Of a stretch of DNA of 64,000 bases, positions 4,904 to 27,850 are shown one piece after another. Source of the DNA: Candidatus Omnitrophota bacterium (GTDB lineage Bacteria; Omnitrophota; Gorgyraeia; Gygaellales; Profunditerraquicolaceae); assembly GCA_049517335.1 (NCBI GenBank), contig JBEKSD010000001.1, positions 92,776 to 156,775 of the forward strand, given 5' to 3'. The position numbers and the translations under genes were made by a program. The number at the start of each line of letters is the position of its first letter. Positions within the stretch are counted from its first letter, which is position 1. The notes beneath the pieces are model-generated. The model saw nothing but the letters and a program-made list of their open reading frames with translations. It was not told where the DNA came from and made no database searches.

Positions 4904-5687
4904 AAGGATAGTCAGCGCAATATTCCTTATCGGGATAATCATGGGAGTAATTTTCGTAGATTGGCTCTGCGGTTTATTTGTTACCCTTTTTATAATTATC
5001 GGACTTTATGAGTTCTTTAGCATGCTTGAAAAGAAGGGGGTCACTACCTACAAGTATGTCGGTATAGGCATGGGTATAATTATACCTCTTTCAATTGCTT
5101 TCCATTTTGAGCCGACAAAGAGCTGGGAATTGTTATTTATAGTTTTGGCCCTTCTTTTTTTAATACTCATGCAGTTTCGCAGAAGGGCAAATGACGGCGT
5201 TATTGTGGATATTTCAACCACTCTTTTCGGTATACTTTATGTTTCCTGGTTTTTTAGTTTTTTGATTAAAATAAGGTATTTACCCGGCGGACTGGGGATC
5301 CTGGGGGCGTTGTTATTAATTACGAAATTCGGGGATATAGGCGCATTTTTAGTGGGTATTTCCGTAGGGAAAACCCCGTTAATCCCGCGCATAAGCCCTA
5401 AAAAGACAGTGGAAGGGGCTTTGGGAGGAATGATTTTTAGTATTATAGCTGCGATAGCAAGCAAGCCTATGTTGCATTTTAGCTATATACATTTAATCCT
5501 GCTTGCTATCGGCTTAAGTATACTCGGCCAGTTGGGAGACCTTTCCGAATCGCTGATTAAGCGCGATTGCGGGATTAAAGATTCAGGTAAACTCCTGCCG
5601 GGCATGGGCGGTATCCTGGATGAAATTGACAGCTTGTTATTTACTGCTCCGGTGTTTTATTTCTACATGAGTATTTTTAACAGATGA
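4881..5687 (+). CDS. cdsA: phosphatidate cytidylyltransferase
   Basis: Multi-TM protein carrying the CdsA signature KKTVEGALGG..SLIKRDCGIKDSGKLLPGMGGILD. Confidence 0.85.
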   Translation: MERPMLFKRIVSAIFLIGIIMGVIFVDWLCGLFVTLFIIIGLYEFFSMLEKKGVTTYKYVGIGMGIIIPLSIAFHFEPTKSWELLFIVLALLFLILMQFRRRANDGVIVDISTTLFGILYVSWFFSFLIKIRYLPGGLGILGALLLITKFGDIGAFLVGISVGKTPLIPRISPKKTVEGALGGMIFSIIAAIASKPMLHFSYIHLILLAIGLSILGQLGDLSESLIKRDCGIKDSGKLLPGMGGILDEIDSLLFTAPVFYFYMSIFNR

Positions 5688-25302: not shown

Positions 25303-25632
25303 ATGAAAACCATAGCTTTATTGACCATATCCAATGTCTTTATGACATTTGCTTGGTACGGTCATTTGAAGTTTAAGAATTCACCCCTATGGATTGTAGT
25401 TTTAGTAAGCTGGGGAATCGCGCTTTTTGAGTATTGTTTTCAGGTGCCGGCAAACCGCATCGGCCACTACCGTTATTCCGCAGCCCAGCTTAAGACCATT
25501 CAGGAAGTTATTACGCTGGTAGTTTTCAGCGTCTTTTCAATATTATACCTCAAGGAAGAATTCCGCTGGAACTACGCGGTTGGTTTCTTATGTATCTTAG
25601 CGGCAGTATTTTTTATCTTTAAAAAGTGGTAA
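25303..25632 (+). CDS. DMT-superfamily small membrane protein (DUF486-like)
   Basis: 109 aa with about three TM segments and a FEYCFQVPANRIG motif. Confidence 0.55.
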   Translation: MKTIALLTISNVFMTFAWYGHLKFKNSPLWIVVLVSWGIALFEYCFQVPANRIGHYRYSAAQLKTIQEVITLVVFSVFSILYLKEEFRWNYAVGFLCILAAVFFIFKKW

Positions 25633-25850
25633 ATTTTTGCGGGTCCTGTCGAGTCGCATTTTCGCAGGATTCGTTTAGATTTTTCCTCCGCTTTGCGGGG
25701 TCGGCAAAGACTTTTCGTATTTTTGGCGGCTGCGGAACTCGCGCCTCGAGCTCTGGCTCTCGGCGCCCAAACATCCTCACCGTTCCGGTGTTGTCGCTTC
25801 GCTCCACCGGGATTCCCAAAAATACTCAAGTTCTTTGCCTAAGAATCTAA
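25633..25850. other. GC-rich non-coding block, candidate structured RNA of unassigned family
   Basis: About 220 nt visibly richer in G+C than the flanks, with many short hairpins (CCGCTTTGCGG, CACCGTTCCGGTG, GGCGCC/GAGCTC palindromes). The only ORFs are Arg-rich reads of GC-rich sequence. I could not recognise a tRNA, tmRNA, SRP or RNase P signature. Confidence 0.25.
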
Positions 25851-25930
25851 ATTCGCTCGAAATCACGACAGATTCATTAAGGATATTTGTTCTGAATTAG
25901 GTATCGTGTCTCTGGAATTATGTTGGAAAC

Positions 25931-25952
25931 CTATAAACTACACGGCAGATAG
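25931..25952 (+). repeat. 22-bp direct repeat, left copy (CTATAAACTACACGGCAGATAG)
   Basis: 19/22 identical to the copy at 26446-26467. It ends 6 bp before the ATG of the PIN-like ORF. Confidence 0.6.
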
Positions 25953-25958
25953 ACTATT

Positions 25959-26445
25959 ATGGCTTTAAAAATAACATTAGATACAAATTGTCTTTTTGAT
26001 TATTTTGAACGTAATCCTCAATATATTGAAAAGTTAATAGAGTTTCAGAACGAGGGTAAAATAGAACTTGCAATTACAACAAGAGTTCAAGCTGACACTT
26101 TCGGTAAAAGAGAAGATAGCCCTATTTGGCAGAAAAATAAAATCCTTTCCCTGTATTACAATTGGGAGTATTGGAAGGCACGATGTTTCTTATTATGATA
26201 GTGGTGATGTTTATGCAGGCGACGATGATAATTTGCAGGATTTAATTCAATCTTGCATAGGGAATGACGTAAAAAGAATCATCGATGTCGACCATCTGAT
26301 TGCTCACATTATTAATAAGAGAGATATTTTTGTAACGAGCGATACTGACGATTTTATAAAACACAGAGATTGTTTGGAGCAAAAGTGTAGTATCAAGATT
26401 ATGACTCCAGAAGAATGTATCAATTTTCTGAAAAGTCAAACATAG
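25959..26445 (+). pseudogene. PIN-like nuclease gene split by a frameshift
   Basis: Frame A (25959..26198) begins MALKITLDTNCLFDYF..ELAITT, which gives PIN N-terminal Asp and Glu positions. Frame B (to 26445) carries DVDHLIAHIINKRDIFVTSDTDDF, a PIN C-terminal acidic motif. The frames can be joined by a 1-nt slip in the A-run GCAGAAAAATAAAAT near 26130-26145. The islet is locally AT-rich. Confidence 0.55.
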
Positions 26446-26467
26446 CTATAAACTATACGGCACGTAG
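26446..26467 (+). repeat. 22-bp direct repeat, right copy (CTATAAACTATACGGCACGTAG)
   Basis: Begins 1 bp after the stop of the PIN-like ORF. It pairs with the 25931-25952 copy. Confidence 0.6.
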
Positions 26468-26515
26468 CCCAAAGGTTAGTGGTTATTTTATAAAATTTTA
26501 GGAGTTTTGGCTTGA

Positions 26516-26538
26516 GCGTGCGTTAAAATTTTTGGCAC
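26516..26538. promoter_or_regulatory. palindromic operator-like site GCGTGCgttAAAATTTTTgGCAC (site 1)
   Basis: Dyad-symmetric GTGC..AAAATTTTT..GCAC. A second near-identical copy lies about 112 bp downstream. Confidence 0.35.
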
Positions 26539-26632
26539 AGCTATTAAAACACAGTCTGCAAGGATTTACGACGAGCTAAGGCGTGAGAATGCGATAGTCT
26601 AATCGAAAGCGAGGAGTAAACCGCGGCAGACG

Positions 26633-26653
26633 GCAAAAATTTTTAGCACGCGG
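26633..26653. promoter_or_regulatory. operator-like site GCAAAAATTTTTaGCACGCgg (site 2), 35 bp upstream of the prepilin-like ORF
   Basis: Shares the AAAATTTTT(G/A)GCAC core with site 1, and the GCGTGC/GCACGC ends are mutually inverted. It sits where a promoter for the 26688 ORF would lie. Confidence 0.35.
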
Positions 26654-26687
26654 AAGACAAAACGCCTAAAAGGAAAATAAGACAAAG

Positions 26688-26933
26688 ATGAAGAAGATTA
26701 AAACTGGTTTTATGCTTATAGAGTTCTTGTTGGTTCTGGTGATAATTATGTTTGTTGTATTCAAGGTATGGGATATTTATTTTAAGAAGCCGGCCTTGAA
26801 CAAAGAGACCCAAAAAGTTATGACTGAGCAAGGCGTAGACACTACAAATTATAAAACAATTAGTGATAGCATCAAAAATAAGGTAGAGGATATTCAAAGT
26901 CAGCATATTAATGAGCTGATGAAAATACAATAG
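26688..26933 (+). CDS. prepilin-like small protein (type IV pilin N-terminal cleavage/methylation motif)
   Basis: MKKIKTG|FMLIEFLLVLVIIMFVV matches the class III signal G/F-x-x-x-E followed by a hydrophobic helix. Only 81 aa. No other pilus genes are adjacent. Confidence 0.5.
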   Translation: MKKIKTGFMLIEFLLVLVIIMFVVFKVWDIYFKKPALNKETQKVMTEQGVDTTNYKTISDSIKNKVEDIQSQHINELMKIQ

Positions 26934-26980
26934 AGCGGAAATACCCTTGCAGCTTTAGATATTTATGGTAAAATTTTGCA

Positions 26981-27850
26981 ATGACCTTTAAAGAAAAATT
27001 ATTAGCAGGAAAATTCGTAGTTACCTCGGAAATCGGCCCGCCAAAGGGTATTGAAACCCATAAATTATTGGAAGACGCCGAGCTTGTGCGCGGTAGGGTT
27101 GACGGAATCAATGTCACGGACCTACAGAGTTCAGTGATGCGGCTTGGATCGCTTGTTGTCTGCAGCCTCTTAAAACAAAAAGGCTTTGAGCCGATATTCC
27201 AGATTACCTGCCGCGACAGGAACCGCTTGGCGCTGCAATCTGATATTTTATCCGCAGCTGCCTTAGGTATAGAAAATTTGTTGATTTTAACCGGCGACCA
27301 TACCACCATGGGCGACCATCCTGAGGCAAAGCCGGTATTTGATTTGGATTCGGTGCAGCTTTTAGAGGTGGTGCGTAAACTCCAGGCAGGCACAGATATG
27401 AAAGGTAATAAACTGGAAGGCGCTGCGCCGAAATTTTGCGTGGGCGCGGTAGTCAATCCGGGCGCAGACCCTATTGAGCCGCAGATTCTTAAAATGGAGA
27501 AAAAAATAGAAGCCGGAGCGCAATTTTTTCAGACCCAGGCCATTTATGATATAAGAATATTTGAAAATTTTTTAAGCAAAGTCAAACATCTTAAAGTCCC
27601 CATTTTGGGCGGGATAGTATTATTGAAGTCCGCGGGTATGGCGCGTTTCATGAATAAAAATGTTGCCGGCGTAAGCGTGCCGGATAATTTGATTAAAGAA
27701 ATGGAAGAAACAAAAGATAAAGTTGCAAAATCCGTTGATATTGCCTCAAGGCTGATTAAAGAATTAAAACCCCTCTGTCAGGGCATACATATTATGCCCA
27801 TAGGCTGGGATACAAAAGTACCGTTAGTGTTAGACGCATCAGGATTGTAA
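26981..27850 (+). CDS. metF: methylenetetrahydrofolate reductase (MetF-family)
   Basis: FVVTSEIGPPKG, INVTD, and the overall MTHFR TIM-barrel pattern. It ends 2 bp before acsB. Confidence 0.75.
   Translation: MTFKEKLLAGKFVVTSEIGPPKGIETHKLLEDAELVRGRVDGINVTDLQSSVMRLGSLVVCSLLKQKGFEPIFQITCRDRNRLALQSDILSAAALGIENLLILTGDHTTMGDHPEAKPVFDLDSVQLLEVVRKLQAGTDMKGNKLEGAAPKFCVGAVVNPGADPIEPQILKMEKKIEAGAQFFQTQAIYDIRIFENFLSKVKHLKVPILGGIVLLKSAGMARFMNKNVAGVSVPDNLIKEMEETKDKVAKSVDIASRLIKELKPLCQGIHIMPIGWDTKVPLVLDASGL

Follow-up and report, generated by a model that had tools for sequence, protein, structure and literature searches.

How did a solitary nuclease gene, split into two reading frames and tightly enclosed by a pair of direct repeats, come to lie in the middle of a housekeeping gene cluster, and what has become of it there? 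The question is raised by a module of 537 bp, measured from repeat to repeat (positions 25931-26467), in the DNA of a Candidatus Omnitrophota bacterium (GenBank assembly GCA_049517335.1, contig JBEKSD010000001.1). The window analysed here is a 64-kb stretch of this contig. A sequence-only reading of the window had described the module as an AT-rich islet with 22-bp direct repeats at its ends and a frameshifted PIN-like nuclease gene between them. Our analysis leads us to regard the locus as probably a solo PIN gene that was acquired by horizontal transfer, as a lineage-specific, foreign, low-GC insertion between folD/DMT and metF, and that has recently become a pseudogene. The insertion is no longer than about 610 bp, and the module with its two repeats accounts for 537 bp of this.

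A PIN-like gene broken by one extra base

The gene content between the repeats consists of two PIN-like open reading frames (ORFs) alone, both on the forward strand. ORF A (25959-26198, stop codon 26196-26198) encodes 79 aa and is annotated by NCBI as ABSE81_00580; ORF B (26068-26445) encodes 125 aa in the +1 frame, with a called start TTG at 26068. Taken together they contain the two parts of one gene. The N-terminal part is read in frame 0 from 25959 to 26137 and supplies residues 1 to ~59, including D8, T40, T41, R42 and D46, and past 26137 ORF A continues out of frame to its stop. The C-terminal part is read in the +1 frame from 26138 to 26445, runs from IKSFPC to the TAG stop and carries the residues R, D, DVDH, H, RD, F, T, D and PEE; it is identical to P0002 (JGI) and P0181 (Logan).

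In the alignment of intact homologues the junction between the two parts reads SPIWQ-KI(K/Q)SFP, and the DNA of the closest homologue is CAGCAAATAAAATCG at the point where the window has CAGAAAAATAAAATCC. The intact family implies a run of four A (CAG AAA ATA AAA TCC), and the window contains five (A5, 26133-26137). The defect is therefore a single extra A within this run, and deletion of one A yields an uninterrupted protein of 162 aa. This confirms the split into two frames at an A-rich run, which had been placed within a few bases of this site, at about 26130-26145. All catalytic and family-invariant residues are still encoded and a second lesion is absent, and for this reason we call the pseudogene young.

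The databases annotate the locus in different ways. NCBI lists the N-terminal fragment of 79 aa, out-of-frame tail included, as a hypothetical protein (ABSE81_00580, MGA2774551.1), JGI and Logan instead call the 125-aa downstream ORF, and a pseudogene is flagged by none of the three. ORF A gave no match in a contig index. In P0112, another member of the PIN-like family, the first 40 residues look out of frame and are followed by good family sequence, suggesting that frameshifted copies occur in other lineages and at other positions.

Fold, active site and relatives of the encoded protein

When the joined sequence was compared with 5.8 billion proteins, 26 relatives were recovered, most of them intact and ~160-190 aa long, together with a few shorter fragments. 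The best relative, from a Candidatus Omnitrophota metagenome-assembled genome (MAG), is 73% identical. PIN domains are defined by four to five conserved acidic residues plus a Ser/Thr, located at the C-terminal ends of the core strands (PMC5499597). The repaired protein has the alpha/beta/alpha, Rossmann-like fold with a central parallel sheet that places it in the PIN domain-like superfamily (VapC-like group). In the family alignment (A2) the active-site positions are conserved, with D8 in 23 of 23 sequences, T40/T41, D46 and D129 each in 25 of 25, and E/D153 in 23 of 24, and all of these residues are present in the repaired window protein.

No curated PIN model matched above threshold: PIN_12 scored 16.7 bits against a cut-off of 32, and NCBIfam gave nothing. 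The model PIN (PF01850) matches 6 of the 25 family members, with a best E of 5e-4. PIN membership is therefore assigned from the fold and the active site, and on these grounds the gene encodes a PIN-fold nuclease, standalone and VapC-like, with a predicted nuclease activity. The identification as a PIN-like nuclease in the sequence-only reading is supported in this way. The hidden Markov model check that it proposed for the repaired protein (160 aa in that reading, 162 aa here) gave no match of the Pfam PIN models above threshold. A sequence-profile search of the PDB with the PIN-like protein found no relevant match. Protein-only RNase P (HARP type) and the PIN domains of Nmd4/SMG6 are structural neighbours too (7og5, 8kda, 8ssg, 7qhy and 2hww), and the domain thus shares the same minimal PIN core with them.

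The family differs clearly from the VapC-type PIN ribonucleases, the toxins of the type II VapBC systems. Sequence identity to these is only 9-16%, the residues R42, R73, D83, D110-x-D112-H113, H117 and R122-D123 are invariant in addition, and ~20 residues are inserted between strand 3 and the next helix. Furthermore, VapBC toxins have an adjacent, co-oriented antitoxin gene (AbrB, RHH, MazE or Phd), usually located upstream and overlapping, whereas upstream of the PIN-like gene lie the left repeat and then a non-coding element (element A, see below), with no antitoxin gene. The best Pfam match is PIN_12/DUF4935 (PF16289), to which 13 of the 25 members match over the first ~40 positions (strand 1, helix 1 and LDTN); the match is confined to profile positions 1-40 of a 172-position region and stays below threshold. 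DUF4935 proteins are ~350 aa long with the PIN-like part at the N-terminus (PMC5499597), unlike the standalone domain of 160-190 aa found here.

The neighbourhoods of the homologues are accessory, defence-island-like settings. A Phd antitoxin and a HEPN/MNT pair are found nearby in one locus (L002), a LexA/S24-like gene lies 3 nt upstream with a serine recombinase alongside in two others (L003, L004), and in L006 an FRG-domain gene overlaps the PIN-like gene. Convergent HTH and RHH genes (L088-L090), a caspase-like peptidase (L091-L094) and a ThsB-like TIR protein together with type I HsdR (L095, L096) are the neighbours in further loci, and some loci have no neighbour of this kind. No antitoxin partner recurs across the examined homologue loci, and the family therefore does not conform to what defines VapBC. 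Of the suggestion that the module is a decayed toxin module, the solitary, broken PIN gene stands; the term toxin module is too strong, as there is no conserved antitoxin partner. A known defence system and a phage origin were also considered and rejected: PADLOC gave nothing meaningful, no relatives were found in viral contigs, and PHROGs likewise gave nothing meaningful. A PIN-like nuclease as an orphan accessory gene is an already known kind.

The wider PIN-like clade (P0036-P0180) comprises ~1,100 clusters at 50% identity that lie outside curated models. Some of its members (for example P0121 and P0155) carry a fused GNAT acetyltransferase or Eco57I-type restriction-modification methylase, and others are 280-600 aa long with unrecognised extra domains.

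Foreign composition and absence from relatives

With 32.6%, the GC content of the coding sequence (CDS) is below that of every other 487-nt stretch in the window (mean 43.3, sd 3.3), confirming the lower GC reported for this patch. The GC content at third codon positions is 26.5%, compared with 47.5 ± 3.0% in 29 long ORFs (z = -7), and the codon usage is farther from that of the host than in 500 out of 500 host fragments of equal length. For the comparison with relatives we used MetF as an anchor, which gave 80 loci from different Omnitrophota species with a MetF that is 70-89% identical. The PIN-like gene is absent from all 80 syntenic loci, as is p81, a small gene that lies between the module and metF. 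The sequence-only reading had called for a comparison with syntenic folD/DMT-metF loci; these do not carry the same intact arrangement. The PIN-like gene is thus foreign to its surroundings and absent from relatives.

The folD/DMT-metF junction as insertion site

The gene order FTCD-folD-(DMT)-metF is conserved across the syntenic loci. A gap of no more than 100 bp precedes metF in 42 of 73 loci, and DMT, where present, usually abuts metF (~7-70 bp in L011, L023, L026 and L063). In contrast to these compact arrangements, 18 of the 73 loci contain inserts of more than 500 bp (0.5-3.8 kb) with unrelated ORFs, and the folD/DMT-metF junction is therefore an insertion hot spot in Omnitrophota. Such inserts contain, for example, two prepilin-like ORFs in L082 and, in other loci of the set L007-L086, a variety of membrane proteins and enzymes.

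In the window, the left conserved flank is a gene for a small membrane protein of the DMT_6 (DUF486) type (25303-25632, forward strand; Pfam DMT_6, E 2e-50), and the right flank is metF for methylenetetrahydrofolate reductase (26981-27850, forward strand; PF02219), the anchor of the 80 syntenic loci. The DNA between the DMT stop (25632) and the metF start (26981) is lineage-specific and 1,348 bp long (25633-26980). It forms a 1.35-kb mosaic, wider than the islet originally described, of which the module with its repeats makes up just the central part.

The limits of the insertion are set by two conserved structured elements on the forward strand, A (~180 nt, 25698-25883) and B (~165-180 nt, 26494-26667). 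In the folD-metF gap of L039 the two elements are ~30-45 nt apart with nothing between them, whereas in the window they are separated by 610 nt, most of which is occupied by the module. L039 is the best available comparison for an empty site and bounds the insertion to 25884-26493. A locus with 86% nucleotide identity (L099) shares p81 and metF with the window, and the homology begins 23 nt before p81, behind a different gene, which confirms that the region is a patchwork.

The 22-bp direct repeats

The left repeat, R1 (CTATAAACTACACGGCAGATAG, 25931-25952, forward strand), ends 6 nt 5´ of the ATG at 25959, and the right repeat, R2 (CTATAAACTATACGGCACGTAG, 26446-26467, forward strand), directly abuts the TAG stop codon (26443-26445). 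Both the bracketing of the PIN-like gene by repeats with 19 of 22 identical positions and the lack of a recombinase, antitoxin or other cargo between them had been reported and are confirmed here. With up to three mismatches allowed, R1 and R2 are the only copies of the 22-mer in the 64-kb window. In none of 100 shuffles of the window were two matches to the 22-mer found, and when the 150-nt flanks were shuffled the best 22-mer match reached at most 18 of 22 positions, usually 13-15. In L100, a contig of another study that is 99.76% identical, R2 is unchanged. The 22-mers are thus real, discrete, unique and non-random.

A dispersed repeat, the common genomic repeat of the sequence-only reading, was rejected as the nature of the 22-mer. 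In 878 kb of related loci there were three matches with up to five mismatches, compared with ~2 expected, and the sole match in the metagenome collection (L087) is an unrelated sequence at chance level. A comparable repeat bracket was not found around intact homologues in other genomes, and the idea that the bracket is a property of the gene family was rejected for this reason.

R1 and R2 are located 27-53 nt from the inferred borders of the inserted DNA and tight against the CDS. Because of these positions they fit the scar of an integration event best, as att-like cores or a duplicated target, and we tentatively propose this as a possible origin, which we put just short of even chances.

Alternative explanations

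An extra A that is a sequencing or assembly artefact, with the organism carrying an intact, functional gene for a 162-aa PIN-like nuclease, is improbable. It would agree with a single-base defect in a homopolymer, with both halves keeping the invariant residues, and with the lack of a second lesion; against it, A5 is found in the 224-kb NCBI MAG contig, in a JGI contig (L001) that is 100% identical over 12,378 bp, and in L097, the Logan assembly of run SRR13021960. A run of five bases is also short for a systematic short-read error, and no intact version with more than 73% identity is contained in the protein collection. Since three assembly pipelines agree, a sequencing-induced shift is unlikely, and the extra A is probably a real mutation and not a read error. 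L100 holds the 3´ half of the gene, R2 and downstream DNA and ends before reaching the A-run. Decoding of the shift, in which tRNA-Lys would slip by +1 on A-AAA-A at a low level, or the polymerase would slip, and a dangerous protein would thereby be kept scarce, is very unlikely, even though a tRNA-Lys that re-pairs from one AAA to the AAA overlapping it would yield precisely W-Q-K-I-K-S, the sequence of the family, and both halves have kept their coding potential. None of 24 close homologues is shifted at this point, and no other family member breaks at the same codon, the fragmentary matches being broken elsewhere, which argues against a conserved programmed shift, a programmed shift being one of the options in the sequence-only reading. 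In addition, five A's are fewer than the length known for efficient transcriptional slippage, no stimulatory element was seen, and the A-site codon AAU is not a stop codon and is unlikely to be rare in an AT-rich gene.

The 22-mers themselves might have another origin, either as cis-acting sites (paired operator or promoter-like TATAAA boxes) or as remains of a tandem duplication with a mostly deleted upstream copy. We regard this as unlikely and rank it below the integration scar. TATAAA is present in both 22-mers, and a transcription unit follows each of them (the gene in one case, element B/p81 in the other), but a -35-like partner is lacking and a consensus promoter scan does not call the 22-mer sites. 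For a duplication, the 50 nt upstream of R1 resemble the last 50 nt of the gene before R2 marginally and collinearly (p 0.03-0.06 at 30-50 nt), yet the resemblance is not significant when extended to 70 nt (p = 0.58) and there is none downstream, so that a longer duplication around the 22-mers was not adopted. The failure to find an empty site with one 22-mer would agree with either of these origins, whereas the lack of a comparable bracket at intact homologues and of the 22-mer in the 878 kb of related DNA speaks against them. An integron-type gene cassette with the 22-mers as parts of attC sites is extremely unlikely, in spite of the cassette-like size (515 bp), the promoterless-looking single ORF that fills the unit, the tight bracketing and a toxin-type cargo as found in chromosomal integron cassettes. 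An attC site is an imperfect hairpin of ~57-141 nt with paired R''/R' core sites, which is not what is found here. Among eight segments of 76-78 nt around R1 and R2, taken on both strands and extended in both directions, single-stranded DNA folds are no better than those of shuffled sequences where the 22-mer is involved, and the lone segment with z below -1 (z = -2.2) has its main stem in the 3´ end of the gene, outside the repeat. Neither a RYYYAAC/GTTRRRY pair nor an array of similar sites nor an integrase within ~6 kb was found, and the integron reading was rejected.

A pseudogenised gene acquired by horizontal transfer thus remains the explanation that we favour, with the repeats as a possible integration scar. 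Several points weigh against it. The bracket is known from one instance, for which another origin is possible, and an empty site with a single 22-mer was not found; it is for these two reasons that we infer the scar rather than assert it. L039, the nearest empty-site-like locus, contains no recognisable 22-mer, which is weak evidence as it belongs to another species (MetF 80% identical). A similarity of the L039 spacer to the window spacer seen by eye (alignment A3) failed the shuffle test (p = 0.67), the L039 spacer shows no significant similarity to the 22-mer either, and it was withdrawn as a homologous empty site; the exact breakpoints are therefore undefined, and the insertion is bounded by the ends of elements A and B. 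A target-site-duplication or att nature of the 22-mers, as suggested earlier, is accordingly not established. Target duplications made by transposases are usually shorter than 22 bp, and terminal inverted repeats inside the 22-mer ends were not detected. No recombinase or integrase was found within ~6 kb of the module, and no tRNA or tmRNA in the 64-kb window. The three assemblies with A5 are 100% identical over 4-12 kb and possibly derive from one read set or library. Finally, the family lacks a conserved antitoxin, and selection against a toxin is thus an assumption.

Comparison with known classes of mobile DNA leads to a similar picture. Of the features of an integrase-mediated genomic islet, direct repeats (att cores) are present at both ends, namely the 19/22 bracket, but the integrase (up to 6 kb away), the tRNA/tmRNA attB (in the window) and the single-att empty site are missing. 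Insertion sequences, miniature inverted-repeat transposable elements and transposons have terminal inverted repeats, target duplications of 2-15 bp and multiple copies, none of which applies here; a second copy of the module was found neither in the window nor in the 878 kb of related loci. The module resembles orphan or decayed toxin genes in horizontally acquired islets in its low GC, its single small nuclease gene, its variable hot spot, its flanking direct repeats and its homopolymer frameshift. Compared with the known islet classes it is without integrase, tRNA target, terminal inverted repeats and further repeat copies, and it cannot be assigned to a known mobilisation class.

A possible history of the locus

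According to the explanation that we favour, a low-GC cassette with a solitary PIN-like nuclease gene would have entered a permissive, hairpin-rich and recombination-prone gap of the C1-metabolism cluster. There it would have landed between the older conserved structured elements A and B, which in at least one other species are direct neighbours. The gene would then have been inactivated when one A was added, in the manner of slippage, to the A4 run, and it now appears as a young pseudogene. Loss of function may have been tolerated or even favoured, since a solitary nuclease without a cognate inhibitor could be a liability. The 22-bp repeats may have been left by a recombinase acting in trans or by illegitimate recombination.

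In a more far-reaching version, to which we give a slim chance, the 22-bp repeats would be the ends of a minimal cassette that is moved in trans and brings solitary PIN-like defence nucleases to hot spots marked by A and B. The two elements would then be new functional classes of structured RNA, or recombination-prone DNA hairpins, tied to the Wood-Ljungdahl cluster of Omnitrophota.

The structured elements A and B

Element A, a conserved structured non-coding element, was recognised from homologues and covariation. Its two hairpins sit inside an outer stem formed by 25703-25726 and 25816-25839. Conservation is high at the junction bases and is also seen in the 3´ tail that follows, which ends in CAGATTCATT. 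Homologues are located in L039 (5597-5776), L042 (2367-2598), L034 (5769-5948), L016 (9515-9697) and, as a partial copy, L037 (5189-5255). In the alignment of five sequences, 94.3% of the cells of 40 pairs are paired and 14 pairs are changed on both sides, compared with a mean of 5.2 in shuffled controls, of which 0 out of 500 reach the observed value, and with at most 3 in slid controls. The strand of element A is always that of the Wood-Ljungdahl genes. In L034 and L042 it lies directly upstream of metF, and in L016 it is flanked by a cooF-like ferredoxin gene and a gene for an oxidoreductase. Element A is possibly a cis-regulatory RNA or an operon-internal element. In the L042 copy, 52 nt are inserted between the outer stem and the first of the inner hairpins, and this insertion has an inverted repeat of its own (ATCCTTCGA...TCGAAGGAT).

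Element B, likewise supported by homologues and covariation, is a conserved hairpin, long and imperfect, in which the internal motifs CAAGGATTTACGA and AGTAAACCG are invariant. Its homologues are found in L039 (5797-5963, forward strand) and, on the reverse strand, in L012 (1672-1834 and 5362-5525), L020 (4401-4564), L006 (4766-4925) and L059 (5689-5846). The sites include the folD-metF gap, the positions after a cooF-like gene (L012) and after acsB (L020), and one beside an insertion with FRG and PIN-like genes (L006). Here, seven sequences gave 36 pairs with 92.7% of the cells paired and 12 pairs changed on both sides; the shuffled mean was 6.1, again with 0 of 500 reaching the observed value, and slid controls gave at most 2. 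For both elements the covariation samples are small.

Neither element matched Rfam; no Rfam family reached its gathering score in the whole window, and none was found in the module flanks at E up to 5. Both are present in one copy in the window and are unrelated to each other in sequence. The possibility that A and B are the two ends of one mobile element was rejected on account of their unrelated sequences, their independent occurrence and the presence of B in both orientations.

Other features around the module

The gene p81 (26688-26933, forward strand) belongs to the 1.35-kb mosaic but lies outside the repeat-bounded module, and encodes a lineage-specific small membrane protein of 81 aa. 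Only close homologues were found (L099, 286-531; L100, 427-672), and none of the Pfam families scored above threshold. Linkage to metF is confined to close relatives, and in L099 a different gene precedes p81. The N-terminus of the protein looks like a prepilin signal (KTGFMLIEFLLVLVII).

Just upstream of element A, at 25634-25667, is a short GC-rich, hairpin-like motif (TTTTGCGGGTCCTGTCGAG...CAGGATTCG) that is 88% identical to positions 5040-5074 in the gap of L037. Similar translations of spurious ORFs (..RQDPQK..) occur in gaps of L053. The motif may represent a third family of intergenic repeats. The genes up to ~6 kb away are all housekeeping genes, namely queA, tgt, trmD, rplS, rnhB, FTCD, folD, DMT, metF, acsB, TPR and polA.

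Significance

In this locus the gain of a solitary nuclease gene and its later decay can be followed as a clean, dated case in a streamlined, uncultured lineage. An insertion with a disabled gene is in itself ordinary genomic debris, and the 22-bp bracket and the adjoining elements A and B are curiosities. The encoded protein belongs to an uncurated clade of standalone PIN-like proteins with an extra invariant D-x-D-H...H motif and with defence-island-like neighbours and fusions, a clade that merits a family model. Elements A and B, located inside the carbon-fixation (Wood-Ljungdahl) cluster, are the more promising leads for new biology.
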